Assembly (NCBI GenBank): GCA_029553545.1
Contig: JAKPKU010000001.1
Location: forward strand, 5,639-69,638
DNA length: 64,000 bases
Direction of reading: 5' to 3'
Source of the DNA: Candidatus Cloacimonadota bacterium
Lineage (GTDB): Bacteria; Cloacimonadota; Cloacimonadia; Cloacimonadales; WRIO01
Under the pieces are notes generated by a model. That model saw only the letters and a program-made list of their open reading frames with translations. It was not told where the DNA came from and searched no databases. Numbering within the stretch: position 1 is the stretch's first letter; each line of letters opens with the position of its first letter. Below are positions 35,960 through 61,307 of this stretch, one piece after another. Made by a program: the position numbers and the translations under genes.

Positions 35960-35972
35960 ATGGATTGCAGTT

Positions 35973-36707
35973 ATGAATTATAAAGATTTAATAAAACAAC
36001 TTGATAAGAATTTACCCGATCATATTGGTGTTATTATGGACGGTAATGGTAGATGGGCAAAGAAACAGGGTGCAGGACGTCTGTGGGGACATAAAAACGG
36101 GGTAGAATCTGTCAGAGCATTAGTAGAAGCCTCTGTAGAAATTGGTCTAAAATACTTGACAATTTATGCCTTTTCAACAGAGAATTGGACAAGACCTGAT
36201 GATGAGGTAAAAGGGCTATTAAAACTTATATTAGATTCATTAATTAATGAAATTGACTCTATGAGTAAACAAAACATTGTCGTCAGATTTTTGGGTACAG
36301 ATATCGGTCTATCAAAAGAATATCAAAGTAAAATTAATAAAGAATGTCAAAAAACATATAATAACAATGGTTTAAACTTTAATATCGCTTTTAATTATGG
36401 GGGTAGGCTGGAATTGATTGAAGGTATTAGAAGCATTGCAACAAAGATCCAGAATAATACATTAACCATTAATCAAATCAATGAAGAGACTATTTCACAA
36501 GAACTTTATACTGCAAACATGCCAGATCCTGATCTGATTATTCGTACGAGTGGAGAAAAAAGACTATCAAATTTCTTAATATGGCAATCTGCTTATGCAG
36601 AGTTTTATTTTACAGACACGCTTTGGCCTGATTTTCGTAAAAGCGAATTTATCGAGGCAATTTTGGATTATCAAAAAAGACAGAGACGTTATGGAGGGAC
36701 AAAATGA
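35973..36707 (+). CDS. uppS: undecaprenyl diphosphate synthase (cis-prenyltransferase)
   Basis: HIGVIMDGNGRWAKKQG and RTSGEKRLSNFLIWQSAYAEFYF. The ATG at 35973 lies just after the prfB stop; the track start 35946 would overlap prfB. Confidence 0.9.
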   Translation: MNYKDLIKQLDKNLPDHIGVIMDGNGRWAKKQGAGRLWGHKNGVESVRALVEASVEIGLKYLTIYAFSTENWTRPDDEVKGLLKLILDSLINEIDSMSKQNIVVRFLGTDIGLSKEYQSKINKECQKTYNNNGLNFNIAFNYGGRLELIEGIRSIATKIQNNTLTINQINEETISQELYTANMPDPDLIIRTSGEKRLSNFLIWQSAYAEFYFTDTLWPDFRKSEFIEAILDYQKRQRRYGGTK

Positions 36708-37495
36708 TTGAGCTAATAAAGAGGGTTTTAATATCAGTCATAGCTATACCACTATTGTTATTTATCTATTATTACGGTCAGATTCCACTAATCATATTTC
36801 TTATTCTTTTGAGCTTAATTAGCTCTTATGAGTTGTCTAAAATGTTAAAAAATAAGTCACTCTATCTTATGGCTTCAGTTATACCTTTCACTGCACTAAT
36901 GTGCTATATGTCTGCAAAATATGACTTGGAATACTCGCTCTACTTATTGTTTTTTGCATTAGCTTTATTTGGTGCAGAAGAAATATTTAGAAATAGAATA
37001 GAAAATGCCATCTATAGAGTAAGCTCTTCTTTAATGATAATGGTTTACTGCGGGGTAAGCCTGGGCTTTGTATATCGCCTTCATGGCTTAAAAAACGGTA
37101 ATTACTTGCTACCATTCATAGCAATCCTCATTTGGATAACAGATACATTTGCTTACTTTATTGGAGTATGGTTAGGTAGACATCGTAATATCTTTAATGT
37201 TAGCCCCAAAAAGTCAATTGAAGGATTTATTGGTGGTTTTGTCTTTGCTGTTTTGTTTGCTATAATTGCTCATTTCATTGTTCCAAACAAAATAAGCCTA
37301 TTTTGGGCTCTTCTCATGGGTATTGTTATAGGTACAATTGGGCAGTTTGGAGACCTATTTGAATCACTGCTCAAGCGTGACTGTGGGGTAAAAGATAGCT
37401 CAAACCTAATACCAGGACATGGAGGTATTTTAGATAGGTTTGATAGCTTTATGATAGCTGTTCCCGTTATTTATATCCTTTACAGTGTATTATAG
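36704..37495 (+). CDS. cdsA: phosphatidate cytidylyltransferase (CDP-diglyceride synthase)
   Basis: Polytopic membrane protein with the C-terminal signature SLLKRDCGVKDSSNLIPGHGGILDRFDS. Confidence 0.9.
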   Translation: MIELIKRVLISVIAIPLLLFIYYYGQIPLIIFLILLSLISSYELSKMLKNKSLYLMASVIPFTALMCYMSAKYDLEYSLYLLFFALALFGAEEIFRNRIENAIYRVSSSLMIMVYCGVSLGFVYRLHGLKNGNYLLPFIAILIWITDTFAYFIGVWLGRHRNIFNVSPKKSIEGFIGGFVFAVLFAIIAHFIVPNKISLFWALLMGIVIGTIGQFGDLFESLLKRDCGVKDSSNLIPGHGGILDRFDSFMIAVPVIYILYSVL

Positions 37496-44709: not shown

Positions 44710-46524
44710 TTATTTCATTAAGATAGCTTTTCTAACTTCAGAATGATTATCTGATTGTAACCTATAAAAATAAATACCAGAAGGCATATTATTATTATTA
44801 TCATCTTTACCATTCCAATTTACTGTATGATTACCTGCTGCTACGTATTCGTTGATTAATGTTCTTACTTTTTGTCCTTTTGAATTGAAAACAGCGATAT
44901 TAACATTATTTGCTTTGCTGATTTGGAAAGCAATTGTTGTGTTTGGATTTAATGGGTTTGGATAATTGCCCTGAAGCATCTTTGTTTTGCTGATTACTTC
45001 TGTTTCTGTAGCAACCCATGCAAAGTCAGACAACATACGACTTCCAACAAATCTGCCATCTACTCTTTCATGTGGGATACATGCCATTGTTATTGTTCCT
45101 GTTGGAATTGCTGTATCGATATAGTCTGCATCATAAAAAGATGTACGGAAGTTTGCATTACCTGTTCCATCAGTTATTACATAAGATGTGCCAGTTGCAA
45201 ACTCTCCTGATGCATTTACAAAAGATAGACCACTGATAGCTACAAGTCGAGATTCATATGTATCGAAGTTTGCATTTAATTCTTGTATTGTAACAGGTAC
45301 AGCGGTAATTGGATTATTTGTTGAGCTTGGTGCAGTTATATTCGCAACAGGAACGAATTGCAACATGCCATTAAATTCTTCTATTTTACCTGATAAACCA
45401 GTGATACCGTCTCCAATGTTGAAATTAGTTGTGATTACATTTGAATAGTCGTCAATTAATAAACCAGCATTGGCATCTTGTACAAATATTTGATTTCTAA
45501 AGCTTTGTGTGTAGCTAACATATACTTCACCTATTACAGTATAAATTGTTGTTCCATCCGCATTTTGTTGTTTCAACTCGCTCAAGTTCGCAACAGAAGC
45601 AGTAAATGAATATGTGGCGCTAACTGTATTGCTTGGTGTGTAGCCATCTTTAAATGCTTTAGCTTTCAATGTTGTTGTTTGTGATAAATTGATTGGGTTT
45701 TGATACAATGTTGAGGACTGGCTTGGCTCGTCACCATTAGTTGTATAGTAAATTAAAGCGCCTTCTGTTGGACAAAAAATACTAACATTTATAGTTGAGC
45801 CATATACTCCACCTGCAGGATCAAAAGAAGGAGTTAAAACTACTGTACCAGCTGTACTTGCAAAAGTTAAGTTGTCATAGCGATAAGTTCCGCCAGTTGC
45901 ATATGAACCAGTTGGGTTTGCAGGACCATAAGCATTTGTGCCAAATTCAAATGAAGATACAATTTTAATTCCAAAGTTAGGGTTATTATTTGCTTCTGGA
46001 ATTGATGCAAAACTTGCTTTGCGATAAAACCAAGTCGCACCTGCATCTATGATATATAAGCCATTATCGAAACCTGAATCGTTATTTGTGACAGTATTAG
46101 TGTTGAATGCATTTGTTGAATTTGCGATAAAATCGTTCCAATTTACACCATCCAAAGTATATTGTACACACATACGACTTGATGCAGTGTTGCTATTTCT
46201 TTGATGCCAGGTGATTTCAATGTTTTCTTTACCAACAGTCGAGACCATTGCTTGAATTCCTGCTGTTTTATTGCCAGTACCTTGAGCAGGGTAACCTGTT
46301 GTTTGAAGCGCTAAGCCGCCTGTACCTGTTCCTGTAAAACCTGTGATAAACTCATAAGAGATTCCACCTAATGTTGTAAGAGTGCCTGTTCCGCTTGCTG
46401 GGTTAAGATTGCTTGCTTCGAAATCCCATTGTGTAAAACTTGTTTGTGCAAACATTAAACTTACAGATAACATAATAACCAACATAAGAGTAATGTTTTT
46501 GATTCTTGAAATATTTACGTTCAT
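44710..46524 (-). CDS. secreted surface protein with T9SS (Por) C-terminal sorting domain
   Basis: Signal peptide after the ATG at 46524, which has GGAGGA 5 nt upstream (the track GTG at 46536 lies inside the RBS). It has a chitobiase/hexosaminidase-C-like Ig domain (IYYTTNGDEPSQSS...KAKAF) and an OB-like module. The C-terminal roughly 80 aa (YPNPLNPNTTIAFQ...SGIYFYRLQSDNHSEVRKAILMK) is typical of T9SS type A CTDs. Confidence 0.7.
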   Translation of the reverse strand: MNVNISRIKNITLMLVIMLSVSLMFAQTSFTQWDFEASNLNPASGTGTLTTLGGISYEFITGFTGTGTGGLALQTTGYPAQGTGNKTAGIQAMVSTVGKENIEITWHQRNSNTASSRMCVQYTLDGVNWNDFIANSTNAFNTNTVTNNDSGFDNGLYIIDAGATWFYRKASFASIPEANNNPNFGIKIVSSFEFGTNAYGPANPTGSYATGGTYRYDNLTFASTAGTVVLTPSFDPAGGVYGSTINVSIFCPTEGALIYYTTNGDEPSQSSTLYQNPINLSQTTTLKAKAFKDGYTPSNTVSATYSFTASVANLSELKQQNADGTTIYTVIGEVYVSYTQSFRNQIFVQDANAGLLIDDYSNVITTNFNIGDGITGLSGKIEEFNGMLQFVPVANITAPSSTNNPITAVPVTIQELNANFDTYESRLVAISGLSFVNASGEFATGTSYVITDGTGNANFRTSFYDADYIDTAIPTGTITMACIPHERVDGRFVGSRMLSDFAWVATETEVISKTKMLQGNYPNPLNPNTTIAFQISKANNVNIAVFNSKGQKVRTLINEYVAAGNHTVNWNGKDDNNNNMPSGIYFYRLQSDNHSEVRKAILMK

Positions 46525-46782
46525 AACTTCCTCCACTTTCCATATTTATTACCAATTTAATAAACATTCAAAATAATGCAAGATCTTTTTTAAATAATAG
46601 CATAAATTTTTTTATTCTTTCAAATAGTGCATGTTCGACTCTTTTATAATGCAGGTGATTGATACCAAAAAACTAATCTATGATAGGAAAAAATACAGAA
46701 CCTTTTAAGAGAAAAGAAGAAAAATAGTGTTTTGCATGTAATGAACAGCGATTTTTTATAATATAAAACCATAATAATCATC

Positions 46783-47145: not shown

Positions 47146-47342
47146 GTATTTGAAGTTTTTTGAACAAAGATAGACTGCCATCATTATTAATAGATATATT
47201 CGATTTGTTACTAATTATTAGTCTTTTATTTTTGATTTATCAAACTATTTTTGATAAGATACAGTTTTTTATTGACAATATAATCATATTTATTATTCTT
47301 AGATTTATAAAAGAATATTTAAACTATAGAATAGGAGTCAAC

Positions 47343-48233
47343 ATGATACTACCAAAATACTTTGATGATCGAGCTAAGATGCTGGATAGAGTGCTTGATC
47401 AGTATTTAACCCCAGAAACAGAAGAGCCCAAGGATTTGTATGCAGCCATGAGATACTCTGTATTTAGTGGAGGCAAGAGATTAAGACCTATTCTATTTTA
47501 TGCAACTTATGAGATGCTGGTAAAAAAAGCAACTGAACATCAAATGGAACAAGCATCATTAATCGCAGCAGCTCTTGAAATGGTGCATACAGCGTCTTTG
47601 ATTCATGATGATTTGCCTTCAGTTGATAATTCTGATGAGCGAAGAGGTAAGGAGTCATGTCATGTCAAGTTTGGTTCTGCGACTGCTATCTTGGCTGGTG
47701 ATGCTCTATTGACAAAAGCTTTTGAAATGATTACCAAACTGGAAGATCCACGAAAAGCTGTACACTGTATTAGAGTCTTGTGCAATTTAGTGTCTACTCA
47801 AGGGATGATAGGCGGGCAAACAGTAGATATTATCTCATCATCCAAACAAAATATCCCTATTACTGTTATCAAATATGTACACTTAAAAAAGACAGGAGCA
47901 TTACTTGAAGCGGCTTCTCATCTTGCTTGCGTTATGGCAGATGCAGATGAGAATACCACAAATAATATGGTGAATTATGCACAGAATTTAGGTCTTGCAT
48001 ATCAGATAATTGACGACATTTTGGATGATATTGGTGACTTTGAAATGCTTGGTAAAGAGCCTTATGAAGATGCTCGTAATTTCAAATCTACATACCCTTC
48101 TATATTAGGGCTTGATAAAGCAAGACAAACCGCTGAGAAACTCATAAGTGATTCAAGCAAATTGATTAAAAACTTGCCTAATAATCATATATTAATAGAA
48201 TTCGTAAAAATGATAAAGGATAGACTGCCATAA
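47343..48233 (+). CDS. trans-polyprenyl diphosphate synthase, predicted geranylgeranyl diphosphate synthase
   Basis: FARM DDLPSVDNSDERRG and SARM DDILDD. A small residue (Ala) sits 5 positions before the FARM (HTASLIHDD). The ATG at 47343 is preceded by AGGAG. The track extension back to 47160 translates AT-rich intergenic sequence. Confidence 0.8.
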   Translation: MILPKYFDDRAKMLDRVLDQYLTPETEEPKDLYAAMRYSVFSGGKRLRPILFYATYEMLVKKATEHQMEQASLIAAALEMVHTASLIHDDLPSVDNSDERRGKESCHVKFGSATAILAGDALLTKAFEMITKLEDPRKAVHCIRVLCNLVSTQGMIGGQTVDIISSSKQNIPITVIKYVHLKKTGALLEAASHLACVMADADENTTNNMVNYAQNLGLAYQIIDDILDDIGDFEMLGKEPYEDARNFKSTYPSILGLDKARQTAEKLISDSSKLIKNLPNNHILIEFVKMIKDRLP

Positions 48234-48237
48234 GATA

Positions 48238-49107
48238 ATGACCTCGATTGAAAGATATAAAATATTAAATGCTGTAAAATCTACACGTATTATTAGACCA
48301 CTAAACTGCATCTTTAGTTTCATTTGTGTGCTATTTGGAACCTATTACTCAGGTGGACTAAACATTAGAATAGAGACCTTCTTAATAGCTTTGTCTGCTA
48401 CATTAATAGCTGGAGCAGGGTATGTGGTTAATGATATTTTTGATTTGGAAATTGATAAAATAAATCAACCTCAAAGAGTTTTACCGCAAGGACTGCTTAA
48501 TATTAAACAAGCAAGCATAATTACCTTTATTTTATTGACTATAGGGCTACTTTTAAGCCTGAGTAGTGATAGTGTATGGCATTTGCTTATCGCTACTATA
48601 AATGCACTACTATTACTGTTTTATGCTATATATTTTAAAAAGATAGGTTTGATAGGTAATTTGGTCGTAGCATGGACAGCTGCTTCAACTTTTCTCTATG
48701 GGGCATTATTAACAAATAGTATTAAAAAAGTATTGCCTATTATGATATTAGCTTTTTTATACACGCTCATTAGAGAATGGACAAAGACCATTGAAGACTA
48801 TGAAGGCGATAAAAGCCAGAATGCTAAAACTGTCGCTATTATGCTTGGTAAAGCGAAAACAGTGTGGTTACTTTTTGTTCCTGCTATTTTGTTATTAGTC
48901 TTTATCTTTGTGTTTTACAGAATGAATATCACCAATCCCTTTGAGTTTTTATGGCTAAATATACTTGTGGTAGTGCCATTAGCTCTATTTTTAATAATAT
49001 TACTTCGTTCGCAGAATAAGATTATCGTAAAGACTGTTCACAAATGGATGAAGATAGATATGTTAATTCTATTGTTAATTTATGTTGTATCTTATTTATT
49101 AGACTGA
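48238..49107 (+). CDS. UbiA-superfamily prenyltransferase, digeranylgeranylglyceryl phosphate synthase-like
   Basis: About 8-9 TM helices, with the Asp-rich motifs NDIFDLEIDKINQPQR and EDYEGD. It lies between the polyprenyl synthase and the GGGPS-family gene. Confidence 0.7.
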   Translation: MTSIERYKILNAVKSTRIIRPLNCIFSFICVLFGTYYSGGLNIRIETFLIALSATLIAGAGYVVNDIFDLEIDKINQPQRVLPQGLLNIKQASIITFILLTIGLLLSLSSDSVWHLLIATINALLLLFYAIYFKKIGLIGNLVVAWTAASTFLYGALLTNSIKKVLPIMILAFLYTLIREWTKTIEDYEGDKSQNAKTVAIMLGKAKTVWLLFVPAILLLVFIFVFYRMNITNPFEFLWLNILVVVPLALFLIILLRSQNKIIVKTVHKWMKIDMLILLLIYVVSYLLD

Positions 49108-49122
49108 ATTTAGGTGGATAAT

Positions 49123-49875
49123 ATGAAAACAGAAATATATTTAAAGCTATTAGAAATGAGAAAAAAGCATCCTTGTTTGTTTTGTCTTATTGATCCAGAT
49201 AAAAATGATATTTTGACCAATGTTCGCCTTGCTGAGATATACGAAAAATGCAATGCTGATGCAATTCTAATTGGTGGTAGTATCATGATTGAAGATAATT
49301 ATGAAGAGACTATTTTGCAGATCAAGAAATCTGTAAAGATACCTGTGATTATCTTTCCTGGACTGTTTAACTTTGTAAGCGGTTATGCTGATGCTATTTT
49401 ATTATTGAATATGCTAAGTAGTCGAAATCCTCAAGTGTTGATTGAAGAACAAGTGAGATGTGCTCCTCAGCTTTACCATACAGGGTTGGAGAGCATTCCA
49501 ACAGGTTATATTTTGATTGAGTCGGGCAATCTCTCTTCTGTTCAGTATATGAGCCACAGTTTACCTATACCACGAAAGAAAAATGATATTGCTCTCATTC
49601 ATGCTCTGGCAGGTCAATATATGGGTATGAAGATGATTTATTTGGAAGCGGGAAGTGGTGCTAAAGAAGCAATTCCCAATGAGATGATAAAATATGTTGC
49701 AAATAAGCTGGATATCCCATTAATAGTGGGTGGAGGGATAAGAACCGCTGAGTCTGCAAAAGAAAAAGCTGATGCAGGAGCTGATTTTATAGTAATTGGA
49801 ACAGTACTTGAAGAATTAGATAACTATACTCTTGTTAAAGATATTGCTGATGCTATACATAGTGTTCAAAAATAG
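49123..49875 (+). CDS. geranylgeranylglyceryl phosphate synthase family protein (PcrB/GGGPS TIM barrel)
   Basis: DAILIGGS, IIFPG, YLEAGSGA and PLIVGGGIRT...GADFIVIGT are characteristic of the PcrB/GGGPS family. The ATG at 49123 lies 5 nt after GGTGG. Confidence 0.8.
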   Translation: MKTEIYLKLLEMRKKHPCLFCLIDPDKNDILTNVRLAEIYEKCNADAILIGGSIMIEDNYEETILQIKKSVKIPVIIFPGLFNFVSGYADAILLLNMLSSRNPQVLIEEQVRCAPQLYHTGLESIPTGYILIESGNLSSVQYMSHSLPIPRKKNDIALIHALAGQYMGMKMIYLEAGSGAKEAIPNEMIKYVANKLDIPLIVGGGIRTAESAKEKADAGADFIVIGTVLEELDNYTLVKDIADAIHSVQK

Positions 49876-50682
49876 ATGGATGGAGAAACTATGATTGATA
49901 TTCACAACCATATTTTACCCGGTCTTGATGATGGATCAAAAGATATTAATACTACAATCAATTATTTACAATTAGTTCAGGCTTCAGGGGTTAAAAAGCT
50001 TGTCTTTACACCTCACTATATGCCTGGTTTTTATGATAGTACGAGAGAAAAGGTCTCTGCTATCTTTAAACAAATAATAGACTTAAAGACTGTGCATGCC
50101 CCTGATGTAGAATTTTATCATTCTGCTGAAGTATATTTAAATGGAGAAAACATAGTCAATGATATTATTAAAGAAAATTTCTTTATAAATAACTCACAGT
50201 ATGTCTTAGTTGAAAATAACTTAAATGGCTTTACAGAAGATTTGTATCAATTGCTTTACCAAATGAACCGAAAGGGCATGAGACCTATCTTGGCACATCC
50301 AGAGCGCTATATGGAGATTAAGAATGATCCCAGTAGGGCTGATGACTTTTTGCAAAGAGATGTGTATTTACAAATCAATACGGGTAGTATTTTAGGAGGG
50401 TATGGACAACAAGTACAAAATGCTGCCTTTGAGCTGATAGATAGAGGATGGGCTCACTTTTTGGGTTCAGATTGTCACTGTCGCTCAGGCGTTTATGATT
50501 ATCCTCAAGCAGTTGAAGTAATACGCAATGAATTTGATGACAAAATCGCTACACTTTTGTCATCTACGTTCCCCGAGAGAATGCTTAAAAATGAGATAAT
50601 CCCGCACTTTTACATGGTGAAAAAAACAATACCCAAGAAGAAAAGCTTTTTGGAAAAAGTGCTTGATTTCTTTGGAGAGTAA
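49876..50682 (+). CDS. PHP-family metal-dependent phosphatase (CpsB/YwqE-like)
   Basis: MIDIHNHILPGLDDGS, FTPHY, LAHPERY and GSDCH motifs. It starts immediately after the stop of the GGGPS gene. Confidence 0.75.
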   Translation: MDGETMIDIHNHILPGLDDGSKDINTTINYLQLVQASGVKKLVFTPHYMPGFYDSTREKVSAIFKQIIDLKTVHAPDVEFYHSAEVYLNGENIVNDIIKENFFINNSQYVLVENNLNGFTEDLYQLLYQMNRKGMRPILAHPERYMEIKNDPSRADDFLQRDVYLQINTGSILGGYGQQVQNAAFELIDRGWAHFLGSDCHCRSGVYDYPQAVEVIRNEFDDKIATLLSSTFPERMLKNEIIPHFYMVKKTIPKKKSFLEKVLDFFGE

Positions 50683-51660
50683 TTGGAAACACTATTAATC
50701 ACAGGTATTACGGGGTTTATCGGTAAAAGCGTTGCCAGATTATTGGTTGGAAATTATCAAATAACAGCTTTAATACGACCCAATACAGATAAAAAGAGAT
50801 ATCAAGAATTTGCTAATAAGATAGAGTTTGTTGAGCTTGATTTGACTGATACTCGAGGGCTTAGAGAATACTTATTCAAAAAGTCTTTTAAATATATCTT
50901 ACATATTGGAGCACTAAGGGGTGGTAGAAAGTTTACTAAAGAAGATTACTTGAAAGCAAATGTGTATGCTACAGAGCAGTTGGTATTACATGCTGTGAAA
51001 CATCAGTCAAAGATGATATTTTGCTCGTCTGTTGGCGTCTTTGGAGCAATTCCAATTGAGTTGCCTGCCAATAATTTGAGCCCCAAACAAGAAGATAATT
51101 ATTATCACTTCACCAAAATTAAAAGTGAGGCTATTATTCAAAAATATGTGCTTGAAAAAGGATTGAATGCATGTATACTCAGACCAGCAATTACATATGG
51201 GGGAGAGGATTATGGCTTTCCATTTACCTTGATGAAACTAATTAAAAAGAAGCTTTTGTTTTATCCAAAACGGACTATAAGAATACATATGACTCATATA
51301 GATTTGATTAGTGAAGCTTTTGTTAGAGTTCTAAAAAATGAGTTTAAACCAGGCAGTCAATGGAATGTGGCTGATGATAAACCCGTGATTTTCGATGAAT
51401 TAGTACAGTTTATCTCTATTAAGATTAATCAACGACTATATCCTGCAAATAGGAGAATCGATAAGGGTTGGTTTGAGCTTGGTGAGCGCATTAGCCGTTT
51501 TTTTAAAAGCGAATTATGGGTAAGTAGATTTGAGCTTATTTCCAAAAGCTGGTACTACGATGTAGAGGCTACTTATCGCGATTTAAACTTGAAGAAGGCT
51601 ACAACAGTGCCAGGATTTAAAAAGTCAATAGACTGGTATATGAAAAGAGAAAAAAGATAG
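50683..51660 (+). CDS. NAD-dependent epimerase/dehydratase (extended SDR)
   Basis: Rossmann motif LITGITGFIG and catalytic YxxxK (YHFTKIK). The start codon is TTG, directly abutting the upstream stop. Confidence 0.7.
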   Translation: METLLITGITGFIGKSVARLLVGNYQITALIRPNTDKKRYQEFANKIEFVELDLTDTRGLREYLFKKSFKYILHIGALRGGRKFTKEDYLKANVYATEQLVLHAVKHQSKMIFCSSVGVFGAIPIELPANNLSPKQEDNYYHFTKIKSEAIIQKYVLEKGLNACILRPAITYGGEDYGFPFTLMKLIKKKLLFYPKRTIRIHMTHIDLISEAFVRVLKNEFKPGSQWNVADDKPVIFDELVQFISIKINQRLYPANRRIDKGWFELGERISRFFKSELWVSRFELISKSWYYDVEATYRDLNLKKATTVPGFKKSIDWYMKREKR

Positions 51661-52503
51661 ATGGCAATACCAATTTTACACTTTTGGGATAAGTATTATA
51701 CTAATCCAGACGAAGGATTGGGGTCAACTTATGAACGCTTTATTATCAATAGGATACTCTATAAGGCTGTGAAGCACTTTCAAATAAAGACAGTTCTCGA
51801 AGCGCCCTCTTTTGGGTTTACAGGTATGAGTGGGATTAATAGTATGGGACTGGCTTTGAAGGGCTGTGAAGTGAGTCTATTAGATCATGATATGAATAGA
51901 CTTGATAATATCAAATCAACATGGAAGACGCTAAACTTGCCTCTCAGAGCTGAATATGTTGATGATTATAGTCGTTTGAATTTTGCAGATAAGAGCTTTG
52001 ATATGTCATGGAATTTCTCAGCATTATGGTTTGTAAAAGACTTGCAAATGTTCTTATCAGAACTAGATCGAGTGACAAAGAGAGTAATATTAATCATGGT
52101 TCCCAATCAAGCTGGATTGGGCTATGTTCAACAGCGCTACTTTGGCCAAGAAGACCTGAAAAAGTATTTGATTGAGTCGCATATCAGACCCAAAACAATA
52201 AAAGCTGAGATGGAAAAACTCAACTGGAAACTGCTTCATCACGAACTATTAGATTGCCCCTTGTGGCCCGATATAGGAATGTCGAAAGAAGACTTTTTAA
52301 AGAAGTTAGGGATTGGTGCCTTTTCTTTTAAAAAGGACGACAATAAAGTTGAGAAGAGACCAATAACTATACTGGATTATTACTCTGGTAGAAACTCGGA
52401 TATGCCTGGTCAATTTGAGAAGTATGAACTGTTTGAAAAGCATGCACCAGAATCATTTAAGAGATTTTGGGCTCATCATCAATACTTACTCTTTATTCGA
52501 TAA
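51661..52503 (+). CDS. methyltransferase-like protein with divergent motif I
   Basis: VLEAPSFGFTGMSG...VSLLDHD...FDMSWNFSALWFV resembles a class I methyltransferase fold, but motif I is atypical. It directly abuts the upstream gene. Confidence 0.35.
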   Translation: MAIPILHFWDKYYTNPDEGLGSTYERFIINRILYKAVKHFQIKTVLEAPSFGFTGMSGINSMGLALKGCEVSLLDHDMNRLDNIKSTWKTLNLPLRAEYVDDYSRLNFADKSFDMSWNFSALWFVKDLQMFLSELDRVTKRVILIMVPNQAGLGYVQQRYFGQEDLKKYLIESHIRPKTIKAEMEKLNWKLLHHELLDCPLWPDIGMSKEDFLKKLGIGAFSFKKDDNKVEKRPITILDYYSGRNSDMPGQFEKYELFEKHAPESFKRFWAHHQYLLFIR

Positions 52504-52513
52504 ATAAAAGGCT

Positions 52514-53542
52514 ATGAAAAAGAAGAATTATATAAAGCTGGCTGTAGGTGTGCTAACTGGCATTGCGCTTCTGTTATTTTGGTTTAAATGGGTCAATTTT
52601 GATGAGCTTGTAAGTTATCTAAAACAAGTGAATGTTTATTTAGCAAGCCTTGCCTTTGTGATATATGTATTATCCTATTTTATAAGAGCTTATCGTTGGA
52701 AGATACTACTCTCAACCAATGCAAAAATAAGCCAAAGAGATAGCTTTTTATACCTGATGGCAGGTAACTTTATTAATTACCTGATACCTATTAGAGCTGG
52801 AGAAGTAGCAAAGTGCCTCTTTTTGAAAGAAAATCATGAGATTGAGTTCTCTAAAGGCTTTTCTTCCGTTTTTTTAGATAAACTATTCGATACACTGGGC
52901 ATCTTTGTGGTATTAACTCTATTGTTCTTTTTGCCAATTCAATTAAACTCGTATTTATTAAGCTTGATAGGATTTTTACTGATTATATTTATGCTTGGAG
53001 CTCTGATCTTAGTATTTGCTGCGATTAGAAAAGACAACGTAGTGAAGAGTTTGCAAAAGATATTCTTCTTTTTACCACTGAGATTTCGTTTGAAGATAGA
53101 CGAGTTCATCTTGAACTTTATTGAAGGGATAGCTATATTTAGGAACCATTTAAGTTTACTATTTCCAGCAGTTGCCTTGACTCTTGGTGCAGTCTTTTGT
53201 GACAGTTTATTCTTTTGGTTACTGTTTAAATCGTTTGCACAAAGCATAAGTTTTACTTATGTTTTATTTGGTTATACACTAATCTATTTGAGTTATATTT
53301 TACCACACCCACCAGCTCAGATAGGCTCAAATGAGCTGATTATGGTGTTGATTTTTTCAATAGGCTTTGGACTCAATAAAGAAATGGTGAGCGCTGTAAT
53401 GGCTTTTTCGCACATAATAACAGGTATTATTGTTATCACTGTAGGGATAGTTGGATTGAACTATGCAGGGATGAAATTTTTTGATTTTATAAATAATGGA
53501 GATAAAGATGACACAACCACAAAACAATATGGAACTACTTGA
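52514..53542 (+). CDS. UPF0104/TIGR00374 flippase-like membrane protein (LPG-synthase TM-region family)
   Basis: About 8 TM helices, with the family-typical YFIRAYRWKILL motif after TM2. Confidence 0.65.
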   Translation: MKKKNYIKLAVGVLTGIALLLFWFKWVNFDELVSYLKQVNVYLASLAFVIYVLSYFIRAYRWKILLSTNAKISQRDSFLYLMAGNFINYLIPIRAGEVAKCLFLKENHEIEFSKGFSSVFLDKLFDTLGIFVVLTLLFFLPIQLNSYLLSLIGFLLIIFMLGALILVFAAIRKDNVVKSLQKIFFFLPLRFRLKIDEFILNFIEGIAIFRNHLSLLFPAVALTLGAVFCDSLFFWLLFKSFAQSISFTYVLFGYTLIYLSYILPHPPAQIGSNELIMVLIFSIGFGLNKEMVSAVMAFSHIITGIIVITVGIVGLNYAGMKFFDFINNGDKDDTTTKQYGTT

Positions 53543-54503
53543 TAATCTACAAAATACGAAAGACCAGATTATCAGTGAATTACATAAGGTAATTATCGGT
53601 CAAGATAAAGTAATTGAACAGATAATGATAGCCTTATTTGCTAATGGTCATTGTTTGATTGAAGGGGTGCCAGGTTTGGCTAAGACTCTGATGATATCAA
53701 CATTGGCAAAGATCTTACAATTGAAATTTAGCCGTATTCAATTTACACCAGATTTGATGCCCTCAGATATCACTGGTACTGAGGTTTTAACAGAAAATAA
53801 GAGTGATGGTACAAAGTACTTCCAATTCATCAAGGGACCTATATTTGCTAATTTAATTTTGGCAGATGAGATAAATAGAACGCCACCAAAGACACAGTCA
53901 GCACTATTGCAAGCAATGCAAGAGTTTCAAGTGAGTGTAGGCAATACCACATTTCCACTTAGCTCACCTTTTTTAGTAATTGCTACTCAAAACCCAATTG
54001 AGCAAGAAGGTACTTATCCTTTACCAGAAGCTCAATTAGATAGATTTATGTTGAATATTATAATTGATTATCCAAACTTTGAAGAAGAAAAAGAAATAGT
54101 ACTGAGTACAACAAGTAAGCAAGTCAATGAACCACAGGCAATTATTACACAAGAATCAATTTTAGGTATTCAATCTGCCATCTATGATATACCTGTCAGT
54201 GAGCATGTTTTATCTTATGCAGTTCGCCTTGTGAGAGCTACCAGACCTAATGAGATAGATTCTCCAGAATACATTAAAAGGTGGGTGAATTGGGGTGCAG
54301 GTCCAAGAGCATCGCAGTATTTGGTTCAAGCAGCAAAGATATTTGCAGCATTAAAAGGCAGATTGTCGCCATCTATTGATGATATTAGGGCTGTTGCTGA
54401 TATAGTTTTGAGGCATAGAGTATTAGTTTCATATGCAGCAGAGGCAGATGGCTTTAAATCAAGCCAAATCATAGAAAAACTATTAAAAGAGACTATTAAT
54501 TAA
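53508..54503 (+). CDS. MoxR-family AAA+ ATPase
   Basis: VIIGQD...LIEGVPGLAKT Walker A, ADEINRTPPKTQSALLQAMQE Walker B/sensor region, and ATQNPIEQEGTYPLPEAQLDRF. The ATG at 53508 is preceded by GGAGA; the track start is 53496. Confidence 0.85.
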   Translation: MTQPQNNMELLDNLQNTKDQIISELHKVIIGQDKVIEQIMIALFANGHCLIEGVPGLAKTLMISTLAKILQLKFSRIQFTPDLMPSDITGTEVLTENKSDGTKYFQFIKGPIFANLILADEINRTPPKTQSALLQAMQEFQVSVGNTTFPLSSPFLVIATQNPIEQEGTYPLPEAQLDRFMLNIIIDYPNFEEEKEIVLSTTSKQVNEPQAIITQESILGIQSAIYDIPVSEHVLSYAVRLVRATRPNEIDSPEYIKRWVNWGAGPRASQYLVQAAKIFAALKGRLSPSIDDIRAVADIVLRHRVLVSYAAEADGFKSSQIIEKLLKETIN

Positions 54504-54530: not shown

Positions 54531-54558
54531 TTGACAGAAAGAATTAATTATATATTAT
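54531..54558 (+). promoter_or_regulatory. putative sigma70-type promoter of purA
   Basis: TTGACA (54531-54536), a 16-nt spacer and TATTAT (54553-54558). Confidence 0.4.
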
Positions 54559-57132: not shown

Positions 57133-57915
57133 ATGGAGGTTGATAAAAAAAAGATGTATCCTAAGATAACTTTTGTTAATACTGATTTAAAAGCAAATCA
57201 TAAAAAGCTCGATCAAAACATGGATCAACTTACTGTAAGTGATTTTGTTTCTGAAGTTAATAATTGTGCTAAGGATGATACAGTTTATATTTTTGAAAAC
57301 CTCAACCACTTTTTGAATATCAACATAGATAGAATTATTGCATTTAATACCATCTTCTTTTACTTCAATAGCTATCAAGATGTGATAGATGGGCTCTCAA
57401 GATCAACTAATAAAGACATTTCAGCCATTTGCGATAAAATAAAGACTGAACACTTACTAAAAGATGTGGTTCATATGTCTACATTAATAAAACAAGAATT
57501 TTGCCATAACCAGTGTAAGTCTGTATTCTGCCACGTTGAAAGCTGTCATGAGGACATAGATAATGTATCAGACTTATTGGGAAAATTTATTAACAATCAT
57601 TATCGTGATATTACAAAGCTTGAGTTTTTTGAGTTTAATCTCGTATTACGTGAGCTATTAACTAATGCTGTCAAGCATGGCAATAAACTCGATAAAACGA
57701 AAGATATAATATTTGCTGTTTTTTTGAATATCGACGAAGGCAGGATAGGCTTTGCAGTTAAGGACGAAGGAGAAGGTTTTGATTTTAAAGGGCATCTTCA
57801 TTCAATCGAAAAGGATGAGCTTCGTATTAATGAACGAGGGTTGTTTTTGATTAACGAATTTTGTAATAAAATATATAGTAATAATAATCTAATAATTGTT
57901 GAACTAAAAAAATAG
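57133..57915 (+). CDS. RsbW/SpoIIAB-like anti-sigma-factor serine kinase domain protein with an uncharacterised Cys/His-rich N-terminal domain
   Basis: C-terminal HATPase_c_2-like region (LVLRELLTNAVKHGN...FAVKDEGEGFDF...ERGLFLI). The N-terminal roughly 150 aa contain HNQCKSVFCHVESCHED. Confidence 0.6.
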   Translation: MEVDKKKMYPKITFVNTDLKANHKKLDQNMDQLTVSDFVSEVNNCAKDDTVYIFENLNHFLNINIDRIIAFNTIFFYFNSYQDVIDGLSRSTNKDISAICDKIKTEHLLKDVVHMSTLIKQEFCHNQCKSVFCHVESCHEDIDNVSDLLGKFINNHYRDITKLEFFEFNLVLRELLTNAVKHGNKLDKTKDIIFAVFLNIDEGRIGFAVKDEGEGFDFKGHLHSIEKDELRINERGLFLINEFCNKIYSNNNLIIVELKK

Positions 57916-57929
57916 AAAAGGGAGAGTAC

Positions 57930-58232
57930 ATGGAAGCTGTCATAAAAGAAAATGTTATGGAGTTAGTTGCAAAATCAAACTTGGTTGCATCTACTATTGA
58001 TAGTCAAACCAGCCTTGCTAAAGATGCACTGGCACAAAACCCCAATATTGAAAATATAGTTTTAAACCTCGGTAATGTCGCAGAAATTGACTCTATGGGT
58101 ATAAATTTCGTCGTAGGACTTTACAAAGAGATTCATGCAGAAAACAGGAACTTTTCCGTTATTAATACATCACGTGCGATACTCAATCTCTTCAATTTAT
58201 TCAAATTAACTTCGTATTTTGAAGTGTCTTAA
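57930..58232 (+). CDS. STAS-domain anti-sigma-factor antagonist
   Basis: A 100-aa protein. VLNLGNVAEIDSMGINFVVGLYKE contains the conserved DS(M/A)G phosphorylatable-serine motif of SpoIIAA/RsbV. Confidence 0.7.
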   Translation: MEAVIKENVMELVAKSNLVASTIDSQTSLAKDALAQNPNIENIVLNLGNVAEIDSMGINFVVGLYKEIHAENRNFSVINTSRAILNLFNLFKLTSYFEVS

Positions 58233-58250
58233 TTAAGTAAGGAGGTGTTC

Positions 58251-61200
58251 ATGGTCGGACAAGATCCTGAAATGTTACAAATGTTTCTTGAAGAAGCAAA
58301 TGAACATTTAAATAGTTTAGAACCTGATTTATTGCTTTTAGAATCTAATAAAGAAAACCCAGATCCAGAATTGATAAACCGCATTTTTAGAGCAGTTCAT
58401 AGTCTAAAAGGATCAGCAGGGTTTTTTGGTTTTCAAAACATAACTTCTTTAAGCCATGTGATGGAAAGCTTGCTGTCAATGGTAAGAGATGGAAAACTTG
58501 CGCCAACTTCAATAATGATTACTAAGTTGTTGGAAGGAACCGACTTGCTTAAGCAAATGGTAGAAGATATTGATAATAGCGAAGCTGTTGATGCAGTCGA
58601 TGTTATAAAAAAATTAGATGGATTTTTGACTGGTGAAGCAGCTGTTGAAATGGTGGAAATACCTGTGGAGAATAAAGATAGCTTGCCAGAAAAGCTTTCC
58701 AAACAATTCCAAATACCCGTCTCAGAGCTTAAAAAAGCATTGGCTCATGGGCATTTTCTATATTCAGTTCATGCTTTTACTAAAAAAGATATGAAGCAAA
58801 AAGGAAAGACACCTTTAGACTATCTCAAAAATATTGAAAAGCTTGGTAGATTAATCGGTTCTTATGCTGACTTATCGACAATTAGCGGACTGGATAACTC
58901 CATTTCTGATAATGATATGTCTTTTGTATACCTGTTTTCATCTGTATTAGAGCCAGACTTGATTGCAATTGGCCTTGAGGTAGATGACTCGCAAATATTA
59001 ACGTTGGATATACCAGAGTTTATTGATAAAGAATTTAAAGTGTTGCACAGTGCTCATAAAAGCCCTGAAGTATTGCCTGAAGAGAACAAAAAAGAAGAAG
59101 AACCACAAAAGAAAAAGAAGGCTAAAAAAGAAGAGCCCGTAGAAGCAGAAATTGAGCCTATAGAAGAAACACTTCAAGAAGCAATTCCTCATACAGCTGA
59201 AGTTGAAAAGACCGTAAACTCATCAAAAAAAGATACAACTCATCACCAAGAGACATTGAGAGTATCTGTCTCTCTGTTAAATAATTTGATGGCTTTTGCT
59301 GGCGAGCTCGTCTTAGCAAGGAATCAGCTTTTGAGAATGGCTTCAGAGCCTGCAAAAGAGGTACCAGGTCTCTCAGCAGTTTTGCAAGATATTGATATGA
59401 CAACTTCTGTTCTACAAGAAAAGATAATGAATACCAGAATGCAGCCTATCTCCCTTGTATTTAACAAGTTCCCACGTATGATTAGAGAGCTTGGTATGAA
59501 GCTTGACAAAAAAATCGTGCTTGAAACTTCAGGTAATGACGTTGATTTGGATAAATCTATCATCGAAAATCTATCTGACCCAATGACTCACCTTGTGCGT
59601 AATTGTGCAGACCATGCAATTGAAATTCCTGCAGATAGACTTAAAAAAGGCAAACCTGAGCAGGGTACTGTATGGCTGAAAGCTTATCATGAAGGTGGTA
59701 AGGTTAATATCGATGTGATTGATGATGGAGCTGGAATAGACGCCAAGAAGATAATGAAAAAAGCTATTGAGAAGAATGTTATCTCAAAAGAAGATTGTGA
59801 TAAGTTGTCAGAAAAACAAATGCTTGAATTAATATTTGCACCTGGATTCTCTACTGCAGAGCAAGTCTCTGATGTATCAGGGCGTGGCGTCGGTATGGAT
59901 GTGGTCAAAACAAATATTGAAAAGCTCGGTGGCTCAGTTAGTATAGAATCAACTATTAATGTAGGAACTAAAATTAATCTGAAATTGCCACTTACCTTAG
60001 CAATCATTCCATCGTTAATTGTCAAGACTAATGAGATGCATTTTGCTTTACCACAAGTGTCTTTGAAAGAGCTTGTTAGAGTTAAAAATGATGACGAAAA
60101 TAGAAAAATAGAGAAAGTAAACGAATCGCCTGTATTAAGACTTAGAAATAAGCTCTTGCCAATAATCTATCTTAGTGAAGTACTGGGAATTGAAGAAAAG
60201 CATGGGGATAGCGAAATTACACGTGTCTTAGTCTTAAAACATGATTTGAACGAATTTGGGCTCGTGGTTGATGAGATCGTTGGGGTTGAAGAGATCGTTG
60301 TGAAATCTATTCCTCTTTTCTTCAAAAACACAAACTGCTACTCAGGCACTACAATTATGGGTGATGGGTCTGTCTCTTTAATTCTTGATATCTCAGGGCT
60401 TGCCAATAAAGCTGGGCTGAATTTTGCAAGCATAAGAGAACAAGAGAAGGCGCTTGATATCGACGAAGATATAGCCGTTGGTGATTCCTCAGAACATCAA
60501 GATATTCTACTATTTGAAAATGCTGAAGAAGAGTATTTTGCACTTAATTTAGACCTGATTAAACGCATTGAAAAACTGTATGATGATGATTTTGAGCTGG
60601 TGGGTGAAAAAGAATATATCGAGCATGAAAACAAAAGTCTACGAGTCATAAGATTAGAGCATTTCCTACCTGTAAAGGCACGTCAAGAGCAACAAGATTT
60701 TCGTTATGTGATTATTCCCAAACTGCTTGAAAACCCTATTGGCATTGTCGCTCATAAAATCATTGATTCATTATCAACAAAGATTCATATAGACACTGAG
60801 AATATTACTTCAAAAGGATTGATTGGCTCTGCCTTATTAGATGATAAACTTGTATTATTCCCTGATATTTATCAAATTGTTGAACTTGCTGAACCAGAAA
60901 AGAGTTTGTTGAAAATGAACAATAAGAACTCTAAATATAGAATCTTGATAGTAGAAGATACGTCTTTCTTCCGTACACTTGAAAAACAGTATTTCGAATC
61001 AGCTGGATTTAAAGTGGATACAGCAATTGATGGATTAGATGCATTAAAGAAGATAACAAAAACCAATTACGATCTTTTCGTCGTAGACTTACTTATGCCA
61101 CGAATGGATGGCTATGAGTTTACTCGTGAGGTACGTAAGAATGCTAAGTTCATCAATACCCCTTGTGTAGCTGTTACTACTTTAACAAGTGATGAGAGTA

Positions 61201-61307
61201 GAGCTAAAGCAAAAGATGCAGGTTTTGATGCTTATGAAATCAAGATTCATAAAGAAAAACTAATTGAAACAGTAACCTCTCTCTTACATGCAGAGAAGTT
61301 TGAATAA
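58251..61307 (+). CDS. cheA: hybrid chemotaxis-type histidine kinase CheA with two CheW-like domains and a C-terminal receiver domain
   Basis: Hpt (AVHSLKGSAGFFGF), dimerisation domain, HATPase (HLVRNCADHAIE...DDGAGID...GRGVGMDVV), two CheW-like segments, and REC (ILIVEDTSFF...VVDLLMPRMDGYEF). The ATG at 58251 lies 5 nt after GGAGG. Confidence 0.85.
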   Translation: MVGQDPEMLQMFLEEANEHLNSLEPDLLLLESNKENPDPELINRIFRAVHSLKGSAGFFGFQNITSLSHVMESLLSMVRDGKLAPTSIMITKLLEGTDLLKQMVEDIDNSEAVDAVDVIKKLDGFLTGEAAVEMVEIPVENKDSLPEKLSKQFQIPVSELKKALAHGHFLYSVHAFTKKDMKQKGKTPLDYLKNIEKLGRLIGSYADLSTISGLDNSISDNDMSFVYLFSSVLEPDLIAIGLEVDDSQILTLDIPEFIDKEFKVLHSAHKSPEVLPEENKKEEEPQKKKKAKKEEPVEAEIEPIEETLQEAIPHTAEVEKTVNSSKKDTTHHQETLRVSVSLLNNLMAFAGELVLARNQLLRMASEPAKEVPGLSAVLQDIDMTTSVLQEKIMNTRMQPISLVFNKFPRMIRELGMKLDKKIVLETSGNDVDLDKSIIENLSDPMTHLVRNCADHAIEIPADRLKKGKPEQGTVWLKAYHEGGKVNIDVIDDGAGIDAKKIMKKAIEKNVISKEDCDKLSEKQMLELIFAPGFSTAEQVSDVSGRGVGMDVVKTNIEKLGGSVSIESTINVGTKINLKLPLTLAIIPSLIVKTNEMHFALPQVSLKELVRVKNDDENRKIEKVNESPVLRLRNKLLPIIYLSEVLGIEEKHGDSEITRVLVLKHDLNEFGLVVDEIVGVEEIVVKSIPLFFKNTNCYSGTTIMGDGSVSLILDISGLANKAGLNFASIREQEKALDIDEDIAVGDSSEHQDILLFENAEEEYFALNLDLIKRIEKLYDDDFELVGEKEYIEHENKSLRVIRLEHFLPVKARQEQQDFRYVIIPKLLENPIGIVAHKIIDSLSTKIHIDTENITSKGLIGSALLDDKLVLFPDIYQIVELAEPEKSLLKMNNKNSKYRILIVEDTSFFRTLEKQYFESAGFKVDTAIDGLDALKKITKTNYDLFVVDLLMPRMDGYEFTREVRKNAKFINTPCVAVTTLTSDESRAKAKDAGFDAYEIKIHKEKLIETVTSLLHAEKFE

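Follow-up and report, generated by a model that had tools for sequence, protein, structure and literature searches.

A conserved Cloacimonadota operon joins archaeal-type ether-lipid genes to a candidate system for finishing and exporting an isoprenoid-anchored head group

The eight-gene operon

This report concerns positions 49,876 to 53,542 of a 64,000-nucleotide stretch of contig JAKPKU010000001.1 from a Candidatus Cloacimonadota bacterium; the whole stretch is called the window below. An earlier note on this DNA had described a module of four genes here, encoding a PHP (polymerase and histidinol phosphatase) phosphatase, an epimerase of the short-chain dehydrogenase/reductase (SDR) superfamily, a methyltransferase-like protein and a UPF0104 flippase-like membrane protein, and had seen them as tailoring the ether core made by the genes upstream. 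All four genes are there, and the conserved block reaches further, to a MoxR-type ATPase as well. The region takes up the 3' two-thirds of a conserved operon of the Cloacimonadota, IDS-UbiA-PcrB-CpsB-SDR-MT-UPF0104-MoxR, which is made up of eight same-strand open reading frames (ORFs) in series at 47.2–54.5 kb. IDS stands for isoprenyl diphosphate synthase and MT for the methyltransferase-fold protein; FPP, GGPP, GGGP and DGGGP below are farnesyl diphosphate, geranylgeranyl diphosphate, geranylgeranylglyceryl phosphate and digeranylgeranylglyceryl phosphate. The features are as follows.

47343..48233, +, IDS, short-chain trans-isoprenyl diphosphate synthase (FPP/GGPP synthase type), first gene of the conserved block
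48238..49107, +, UbiA-family prenyltransferase, DGGGP-synthase-like (Pfam/NCBIfam profiles)
49114..49875, +, PcrB-family GGGP synthase (Pfam/NCBIfam profiles)
49876..50682, +, CpsB/YwqE-type PHP metal-dependent phosphatase (Pfam CpsB_CapC)
50683..51660, +, extended SDR oxidoreductase, first half of the SDR-MT unit (Pfam Epimerase)
51661..52503, +, atypical class I methyltransferase-fold protein (MT), second half of the SDR-MT unit and family marker (Methyltransf_11)
52514..53542, +, UPF0104 / LPG_synthase_TM flippase-like polytopic membrane protein (PF03706, TIGR00374)
53496..54503, +, MoxR-type AAA+ ATPase, last gene of the conserved block, overlapping UPF0104 (AAA_3)
54531..54558, +, best sigma-70-like promoter match of the region, between MoxR and purA (TTGACA-16-TATTAT, 11/12)

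Neighbouring genes of the block are separated by gaps of 0–10 nt or overlap each other. The PcrB stop codon TAG (49873-75) abuts the CpsB ATG at 49876, the CpsB stop TAA (50680-82) abuts the SDR start TTG at 50683, and the SDR stop TAG (51658-60) abuts the MT ATG at 51661; a 10-nt gap then precedes the UPF0104 ATG at 52514, and MoxR starts at ATG 53496 (or at 53508 in the Joint Genome Institute, JGI, call), which gives an overlap of 47 or 35 nt with the UPF0104 stop at 53542. The zero spacings at 49875/49876, 50682/50683 and 51660/51661, the 10-nt gap and the MoxR overlap are thus all as the earlier note had them, and every motif it quoted is found in the translations. Co-transcription with the isoprenoid genes, which it had called almost certain, we judge to be plausible. 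Ahead of the IDS ATG at 47343 there is a promoter-like site at 47272-47299 (10/12), within the eight-gene block no terminator-like site exceeds chance, and the promoter-like site at 54531-54558 probably marks the 3' boundary of the transcription unit; these promoter calls are consensus matches only. The IDS reading frame formally opens at TTG 47160, with a 61-residue hydrophobic-looking extension (47160-47342), and ATG 47343, which matches the public call and comes directly after the promoter-like site, is the probable start. A 75.6-kb JGI metagenome contig matches the window on the compared stretch, with the same gene calls.

IDS, of 296 residues in the JGI gene call, scores 192 bits with Pfam polyprenyl_synt and 292 bits with the NCBIfam FPP synthase subfamily (cutoff 275). 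The UbiA protein scores 119.5 bits with Pfam UbiA; its best NCBIfam models are those of DGGGP synthase (DGGGPS), at 171 bits and below the cutoff of 296. PcrB reaches 147 bits with Pfam PcrB, 285 bits with NF003198 (cutoff 247) and 205 bits with the GGGP model TIGR01769 (cutoff 161.55). The archaeal-type ether-core pair of GGGP synthase (GGGPS) and DGGGPS or a DGGGPS-like enzyme is therefore present and adjacent in the window. The window UbiA shares 41% identity, where the two match, with the protein of the genome NIOZ-UU3 (locus L079), whose GGGPS and DGGGPS activities have been demonstrated in E. coli (PMC7852524); in that work the products of the orthologous PcrB and UbiA are GGGP and a diether lipid.

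The absence of carS had been taken to mean that the head group is added by a route other than that through CDP-archaeol. Neither CarS nor glycerol-1-phosphate (G1P) dehydrogenase was seen among the window genes scanned, a search of the window and not of the whole genome, and both are reported missing from four Black Sea Cloacimonetes metagenome-assembled genomes (MAGs) (PMC7852524). A gene for the CDP-diglyceride synthase CdsA, however, lies in the window at 36704-37495, and the bacterial enzyme can form CDP-archaeol (PMC7852524). The lack of carS is therefore no argument for a different route and does not imply one; CdsA could activate DGGGP, in which case a CDP route would be available. The cdsA gene overlaps uppS (undecaprenyl diphosphate synthase), the two spanning 35946-37495, some 10 kb upstream of the operon.

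Gene order across Cloacimonadota

The MT-like protein was chosen as marker since it is the most specific gene of the block. In a scan of one genome per GTDB species a single MT protein as query gave no match; an MT alignment worked and found relatives in 187 species genomes, of which the best 80 are essentially all Cloacimonadota, including NIOZ-UU2, UU3 and UU4. The loci were typed by tblastn of eight window proteins; the counts below are for the roughly 62 species loci whose upstream sequence reached 4.5 kb or more.

Type A, IDS-UbiA-PcrB-CpsB-SDR-MT-(UPF0104)-(MoxR): 37 of ~62 species loci
Type B, IDS-CpsB-SDR-MT-UPF0104-MoxR, without UbiA or PcrB: 8 loci (12 including shorter contigs)
Type C, PcrB-CpsB-SDR-MT-..., without IDS or UbiA: 7 loci, 4/7 also without UPF0104 but with MoxR
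Type D, SDR-MT alone: 6 loci
Type E, SDR-MT-GT2-GT2-PMT_2-IDS-x-UbiA (GT2, family 2 glycosyltransferase): 2 loci
Other architectures: 2 loci

Pfam-annotated example loci agree with every architecture type. The synteny that the earlier note had proposed to look for in other genomes is thus found, in full form in the 37 loci of type A. PcrB and CpsB are adjacent in 44/62 informative loci, and CpsB adjoins PcrB in every locus that has PcrB. Protein identity to the window is only 31–85% across the loci with conserved order, and the genes beyond IDS and MoxR vary from lineage to lineage; an order kept at such identities while the flanks differ marks the block as a selected unit and not as residual synteny.

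The same observations bear on the reading that there is no shared pathway at all, only an inherited operon order joining unrelated envelope and housekeeping functions, in which CpsB would be a regulatory protein-tyrosine phosphatase, SDR-MT would make a soluble metabolite, and UPF0104 and MoxR would act elsewhere. Such a reading draws on the fact that subsets of the genes occur apart (SDR-MT by itself, or MoxR next to MT where UPF0104 is lacking), on the confinement of the conserved order to one phylum with architecture types that follow clades, and on the want of an evident lipid role for MoxR. Set against it are the persistence of the order while the flanks turn over, the zero-spaced or overlapping junctions, and the independent re-association of SDR-MT with IDS and UbiA in other lineages described below. 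We consider it clearly unlikely.

Breaks and insertions are found at the UbiA/PcrB, CpsB/SDR and MT/UPF0104 junctions, and none at PcrB/CpsB or SDR/MT in the typed Cloacimonadota loci. The positions of the breakpoints suggest two sub-modules, IDS-UbiA-PcrB-CpsB and SDR-MT-UPF0104-MoxR. On the NIOZ-UU3 scaffold (L079 6330-8876) two reverse-strand ORFs, of 676 and 114 residues, sit between CpsB and SDR and split the block into two transcription units; the C-terminus of the 676-residue ORF resembles secretion-tail proteins. Locus L064 has a comparable gap of ~3 kb between CpsB and SDR.

The SDR-MT unit

The SDR protein scores 92 bits with Pfam Epimerase and 53 bits with 3Beta_HSD. Its best NCBIfam model is HpnA (TIGR03466), at 65 bits against a cutoff of 367, and it reaches 57 bits with GalE (TIGR01179), against a cutoff of 262 and with only residues 4-167 matched. 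It carries the motif TGITGFIG (TGxxGxxG), S115, the catalytic Y141-HFT-K145 and an arginine, Arg32, after strand beta-2. In alignment A4, of 36 sequences, G8, G11, G14, Y141, K145 and Arg32 never vary, and the conservation of S115 is 90% or more. In SDRs generally, an arginine at this place speaks for an NADP(H)-dependent reductase rather than for an enzyme that keeps its NAD+ tightly bound. We have rejected GalE as an assignment, since the score is below the cutoff and the protein carries the NADP-type arginine, and with it the label of epimerase given in the earlier note is not borne out. Neither an HpnA-level score nor shc or hpn genes nearby were found. Several relatives are annotated by JGI as 'dihydroflavonol-4-reductase', and the SDR part of a fused relative (L090) scores 188 bits with HpnA, 163 with OleD and 140 with SdmB, vs 70 with GalE. 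The AlphaFold2 (AF2) model has a pLDDT of 89.6, and its best Foldseek match is Gox2253, followed by RmlB/GalE, with TM-scores of 0.75-0.79.

A redox enzyme two genes after PcrB, in a phylum that appears unable to make G1P (no egsA or araM), could be thought to set the stereochemistry of the glycerol, either by converting dihydroxyacetone phosphate to G1P or by inverting C2 of glycerol-3-phosphate (G3P) or GGGP via a keto intermediate. The G1P dehydrogenase genes are indeed undetected in the four Black Sea Cloacimonetes MAGs (PMC7852524). The catalytic residues are also intact and the arginine is, among SDRs, typical of NADP(H)-dependent ketoreductases. The protein has no similarity, however, to known G1P or G3P dehydrogenases, the SDR-MT pair occurs in many clusters and clades without PcrB, and a partner of MT fold that is always paired with the SDR, and elsewhere fused to it, is left without a role. 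For the obligate partner and the PcrB-less clusters we rejected the SDR as the missing G1P dehydrogenase, and we hold the stereochemical explanation as a whole to be highly improbable.

The second half of the unit had been described as having a degenerate motif I of class I methyltransferases. The protein scores 32.3 bits with Methyltransf_11 (gathering threshold 21.2), and its motif I loop, E47-A-P-S-F-G-F-T-G-M-S-G-I-N-S, is non-canonical yet invariant in the family, as are the signatures EGLG..YER, ExPxFGFTGxSGINS, D75 at the end of beta-2, WNF, DxPPWPD and WAHH. The loop is unusual, then, and not decayed; this invariance is the mark of a constrained protein rather than a relic, and a decayed pseudo-enzyme was rejected on the same ground. 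The structure prediction that had been suggested for this protein gives a class I methyltransferase fold: the AF2 model (pLDDT 88.5) matches TleD, an FPP C6-methyltransferase, PMT and RebM with a Foldseek probability of 1.0, E ~1e-9 and TM-scores of 0.46-0.56. The enzymes at the top of this ranking methylate small molecules and terpenoids.

When 1.84 billion representative proteins were searched by profile, 529 MT relatives came up, 81 of the clusters at E <= 1e-30. Natural SDR-MT fusions with the same order as the two genes occur among them (P0126, P0148, P0163, P0190, P0196 and P0212); P0126 is 35% identical to the window in its SDR part and 42% in its MT part. Because of these fusions, the strict adjacency, and the invariant catalytic and signature residues, SDR and MT are seen to be one functional unit. 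This coupling is a new result of the analysis.

Other partners are seen around the unit. There is an MT-DUF362 fusion (P0213), and a fusion of a canonical methyltransferase to the MT-like protein (P0147), and both mirror the DUF362/ferredoxin gene or the UbiE-like methyltransferase gene that is inserted after MT in some Cloacimonadota. The DUF362 protein, which has two 4Fe-4S motifs (L056 7833-8948, L067 10785-11960, L090 11775-12914), sits between MT and UPF0104 in some Cloacimonadota, and in a digester contig it comes after the fused SDR-MT; probably the unit has in it a third partner. A canonical UbiE-like methyltransferase stands beside the atypical MT at L084 10839-11555, L089 11752-12591 and L091 11747-12580, and its recurrence suggests that the atypical MT may not be the only, or the actual, methyl-transferring enzyme.

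The phosphatase, the flippase-like protein and MoxR

CpsB matches Pfam CpsB_CapC (PF19567) with 160.4 bits (gathering threshold 27) over profile positions 1-233 of 234. It aligns over its full length with YwqE of B. subtilis (3qy6; E 9e-30), at an identity of about 30–35% by eye, and its metal-site motifs MIDIHNHILP, AHPER and SDCH line up with MIDIHCHILP, AHPER and SDAH of YwqE. The score with the Cps4B equivalog model NF041488 is 110 bits, short of the cutoff of 400. The protein thus has the family, and the N-terminal HxH and HPER motifs, in common with the manganese-dependent PHP tyrosine phosphatases CpsB, Wzh and YwqE, and this end-to-end alignment with tyrosine phosphatases is a point in favour of unrelated functions joined by inherited gene order. 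The gene differs from capsule cpsB, however, in being fixed next to PcrB or IDS and not to capsule genes, and in having no adjacent CpsC/CpsD kinase. In the annotated Cloacimonadota loci and the scanned genes of the window, to which the search was confined, no partner of CpsC/CpsD or bacterial tyrosine kinase (BY-kinase) type was found, which speaks against the unlinked-functions explanation in turn; without a kinase partner, and with so fixed a place, CpsB as a capsule regulator was rejected. A lipid-phosphate substrate is plausible by analogy, because the gene holds a fixed position after PcrB and because the dephosphorylation of heptaprenylglyceryl phosphate (HepGP) in Bacillus offers a precedent (PMC9179154, PMC12345273).

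The UPF0104 protein, of 342 residues, scores 154 bits with PF03706 (cutoff 33.4; profile positions 3-302 of 302) and 113 bits with TIGR00374 (cutoff 43.2), and has no match among solved structures. It had been placed in the family of the transmembrane region of MprF. Membership of the family stands; MprF itself does not, for only the transmembrane-region families are matched and the C-terminal aminoacyl-phosphatidylglycerol synthase domain is absent. HpnL was rejected too, there being no match to TIGR03476. The gene follows MT in most Cloacimonadota loci and is missing from four species of type C (L027, L046, L049 and L051), in which PcrB-CpsB-SDR-MT is followed directly by MoxR. MoxR (Pfam AAA_3, 212 bits, plus AAA_lid_2 and bpMoxR) stands after UPF0104, or after MT, in almost every locus long enough to show it, and is the most constantly retained 3' gene of the block; the four species show that it is retained more strictly than the flippase-like protein.

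SDR-MT outside Cloacimonadota

Three look-ups of fused or distant members showed neighbours of GT2, radical SAM/SPASM (SAM, S-adenosylmethionine), UbiE-like methyltransferase, DUF362/ferredoxin and GT-C (PMT_2) type, and two of the contigs look archaeal. For a wider view, metagenomes were scanned with the distant MT subfamily, using a 12-sequence subset as query since the 35-sequence family alignment was too diverse, and the ORFs of the resulting 80 loci were clustered and annotated. Upstream, in the 28 loci with at least 4 kb of sequence, a GT2 is found in 27/28 and a radical SAM protein in 24/28. Downstream, in the 26 loci with at least 4 kb, a divergent 360-residue UbiA is found in 14/26, an IDS in 10/26 and a gene of the geranylgeranyl-reductase (GGR) family in 6/26. 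Two patterns can be told apart. The first is GT2-GT2-rSAM-SDR-(GT-C-like)-MT-GT2-IDS-x-UbiA-GGR-PEP-synthase-like, where rSAM is radical SAM and PEP phosphoenolpyruvate. The second, on GC-rich contigs (~55% G+C), is of polysaccharide type, with RmlC, a second SDR, a FemAB/GNAT protein and a Wzx flippase. The small GT2 of the cassette best matches the polyprenyl-phosphate glycosyltransferases ArnC, AglJ, PpgS and PgfS.

At the end of the cassette (L118 14721-15938, L127 13485-15962 and similar) stand a flavoprotein of the GGR family and an enzyme resembling PEP synthase, PigC and rifampicin phosphotransferase; the two together point to a saturated isoprenoid and an ATP-dependent activation step. 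The window has radical SAM/SPASM genes of its own, at 22406-23422 (+) and 31535-32572 (-). The latter is 24–27% identical to the radical SAM protein of the cassette, too weak for an orthologue.

SDR-MT is thus linked to IDS and UbiA repeatedly, in different architectures, and glycan clusters are a natural setting for it as well. Common to these contexts would be the handling, at the membrane, of a head group that is glycosyl or hydroxylated.

These contexts give substance to a glycan or glycolipid pathway on ordinary polyprenyl-phosphate carriers, with UbiA and PcrB as neighbours only through the IDS that feeds them. SDR-MT would then tailor a nucleotide- or carrier-linked sugar, the PHP protein would be a sugar-phosphate or carrier phosphatase, and UPF0104 would flip the carrier-linked product. 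The GT2 and radical SAM/SPASM genes before SDR-MT fit such a pathway, as do the likeness of the small GT2 to polyprenyl-phosphate glycosyltransferases, the GT-C/PMT_2 proteins of the cassette, the clusters of the second pattern and the NDP-sugar enzymes among the structural neighbours of the SDR. There is no glycosyltransferase in or beside the Cloacimonadota operon, however, and by profile the SDR matches lipid-associated families best. Around half of the distant cassettes, moreover, own an IDS and a UbiA, six of them a GGR-like gene too, which points to a dedicated isoprenoid lipid and not to a housekeeping carrier. PcrB also stays with CpsB-SDR-MT in two clades that have lost IDS-UbiA from the locus. 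The glycan pathway is possible, and in our judgement rather unlikely.

Proposed function

The reading that we prefer is that of a lipid-anchored head-group finishing and export system, in which the operon would make and finish an isoprenoid-anchored membrane product. We put it forward tentatively, as a real possibility that falls somewhat short of probable. The first sub-module (IDS, UbiA, PcrB and the PHP phosphatase) would make an isoprenoid glycerol ether, from which the phosphatase probably removes the phosphate to leave a neutral (di)geranylgeranylglycerol as acceptor or anchor. The second (SDR-MT, UPF0104 and MoxR) would finish the membrane-anchored product and move it. SDR and the MT-fold protein may act jointly as one two-step enzyme on a hydroxylated head group, a sugar or polyol, that is on the isoprenoid lipid or destined for it; the SDR would oxidize or reduce a hydroxyl or keto group with NAD(P)H, and MT would transfer a methyl group from SAM. 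UPF0104 would translocate the lipid-linked product across the membrane. These assignments are inferred throughout: what the phosphatase and SDR-MT act on, which reactions SDR-MT performs, that UPF0104 translocates, and whatever part MoxR plays. The type E Cloacimonadota and the cassettes of the first pattern, with IDS and UbiA beside SDR-MT, lend support to the isoprenoid link.

A number of observations weigh against this proposal, among them the persistence of the block without the ether-bond enzymes. A clade of 12 species keeps IDS-CpsB-SDR-MT-UPF0104-MoxR with neither UbiA nor PcrB within 10 kb; this clade, type B, is coherent and has 'Candidatus Cloacimonas sp.' and digester MAGs among its members. 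A 2025 survey reports GGGPS, DGGGPS and GGR from Cloacimonadia Clade B and their absence from Clade A, for which it took Ca. Cloacimonas acidaminovorans as representative (PMC12590816). In a list of PcrB homologues down to 60% identity, chromosomes of types A and C are present and none of types B or D, which is suggestive only. Another clade, of 11 species, has SDR-MT without CpsB, UPF0104 or MoxR nearby. In the tree of SDR plus MT every architecture type falls in one or two clades, so that the independent rearrangements are few, and few too are the evolutionary events that can be counted as separate. Among the proteins themselves, the fold of the SDR is equally close to NDP-sugar dehydratases and epimerases, so that the AF2 model does not tell a sugar from a lipid substrate; the closest characterised relatives of CpsB, YwqE and CpsB, are protein-tyrosine phosphatases; and the operon has no head-group-adding transferase. 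Outside the phylum, CpsB, UPF0104, PcrB and MoxR are absent from all 80 loci, and the Wzx/RmlC clusters of the second pattern hold SDR-MT without isoprenoid genes. The earlier note had reckoned that its proposal would fail if the four genes were found in ordinary capsule or lipopolysaccharide clusters with no isoprenoid genes; this is partly so, by way of distant SDR-MT units.

The 12 species also speak for the glycan pathway. The MT tree was rooted with distant relatives to judge between loss and insertion of UbiA-PcrB, and the type B lineages come out nearest the root, a weak and unstable answer. Going by this branching, UbiA-PcrB could have been inserted beside IDS in a pre-existing operon, the ether-bond genes being the later addition. 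With the block genes and MoxR persisting without ether-bond enzymes in cis, a strict reading as tailoring of DGGGP is weakened: of the earlier ether-core proposal, the linkage to isoprenoid genes holds and the strict tie to the ether core does not. Since the module is not obligatorily tied to that core, the class of substrate for the finishing and export system is more probably an isoprenoid-anchored head group than DGGGP specifically. Outliving the ether-lipid genes in one clade, the block cannot be used alone as a marker of ether-lipid synthesis.

A narrower version would have the PHP protein, SDR-MT and UPF0104 form a CDP-independent route, which dephosphorylates, redox-modifies and methylates (D)GGGP, or adds a modified sugar or polyol, and flips the product outward. 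As part of the same claim, the product would be a bulk neutral ether lipid, or a carrier or anchor lipid like the acetylated heptaprenylglycerol (Ac-HepG) of Bacillus, and the SDR-MT chemistry would be reused in the GT2-radical-SAM-SDR-MT-IDS-UbiA-GGR cassette for saturated isoprenoid glycolipids in other bacteria and probably archaea. We regard this narrower version as doubtful.

Comparison with known systems

The closest known locus is that of the Cloacimonetes GGGPS/DGGGPS genes (Villanueva et al. 2021, ISME J, PMC7852524), which is of the same type as the window: NIOZ-UU2, UU3 and UU4 are our loci L040, L079 and L081, and have the polyprenyl synthase, UbiA and PcrB in the same order. That work treats only the three core genes and assumes head groups from bacterial CdsA/PgsA enzymes. 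Its main text makes no mention of an operon, gene cluster, epimerase, methyltransferase, flippase or phosphatase, and its supplement holds only per-gene annotation tables; the five downstream genes (CpsB, SDR, MT, UPF0104 and MoxR) beside the ether-lipid genes are undiscussed there. Text searches of an incomplete literature collection found no description of the operon, nor of the wider SDR-MT cassette, in line with the earlier remark that no pathway of such composition was known.

The hopanoid hpn cluster is likewise an isoprenoid-lipid cluster with an SDR (HpnA), a GT2 (HpnB) and a protein of UPF0104/AglD type (HpnL). HpnA is the best NCBIfam model for the window SDR and a far stronger one for the fused relatives; the window SDR, however, has 65 bits vs the HpnA cutoff of 367, and UPF0104 lacks the TIGR03476 match of HpnL. 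The hpn clusters have no MT-fold partner, PHP phosphatase or MoxR, and the lipid here would be a glycerol ether or polyprenyl and not a hopanoid. HpnA, HpnB and HpnL have themselves no established function. By analogy, the extra genes of the operon can be seen as accessory genes of an isoprenoid-lipid cluster, comparable to those of hpn.

The PcrB route of B. subtilis (PMC12345273, PMC9179154) shares the proposed logic of phosphatase, modifying enzymes and translocator. HepGP is dephosphorylated and then acetylated by YvoF at glycerol hydroxyls left free, and the Ac-HepG carrier, which is proposed to be shuttled to the outer leaflet, is used outside the membrane by LhaT. The lipid there is a C35 monoether, unlike the C20 mono- or diether expected here, and YvoF transfers acetyl groups where this operon has SDR-MT. 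No dedicated phosphatase or flippase gene is named in the abstracts of the two papers, and the accessory genes are non-homologous.

A third likeness is in enzyme classes. The mycobacterial decaprenyl-phospho-arabinose route uses the UbiA-type protein Rv3806c, the phosphatase Rv3807c, epimerisation by DprE1/DprE2 (the latter an SDR) and GT-C transferases; it has in common with the genes discussed here a UbiA, a phosphatase, an SDR acting on a lipid-linked sugar via a keto intermediate, and GT-C proteins, which here are the PMT_2 proteins of type E and of the first pattern. There is no DprE1-like flavoenzyme here, however, the phosphatase is of PHP and not PAP2 type, and the window UbiA is DGGGPS-like. 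Membership of this pathway was rejected, as the UbiA proteins reach only 19–23 bits on DPPR-synthase models.

Neighbouring genes

Upstream of the operon and divergent from it, at 44710-46536 (-), lies a gene whose large secreted product has a C-terminal sorting domain for type IX secretion, and secreted proteins sorted in this way recur beside or inside the block in other loci. Downstream of purA, at 57133-61307, are genes for a HATPase_c_2 protein of anti-sigma type, a STAS protein and a hybrid kinase resembling CheA, with the domains Hpt, H-kinase_dim, HATPase_c, CheW and receiver; all of these are unrelated to the operon.

Significance

Cloacimonadota are the main example of bacteria that possibly make archaeal-type ether lipids, and the actual lipids have never been seen. 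The operon supplies concrete candidates for the steps after DGGGP, and it predicts mass shifts to be looked for in lipidomes and on expression in E. coli. Beyond this phylum, the SDR-MT family, with its fusions and the GT2-radical-SAM-IDS-UbiA-GGR cassette, makes up a sizeable uncharacterised system for isoprenoid-linked products in several lineages.

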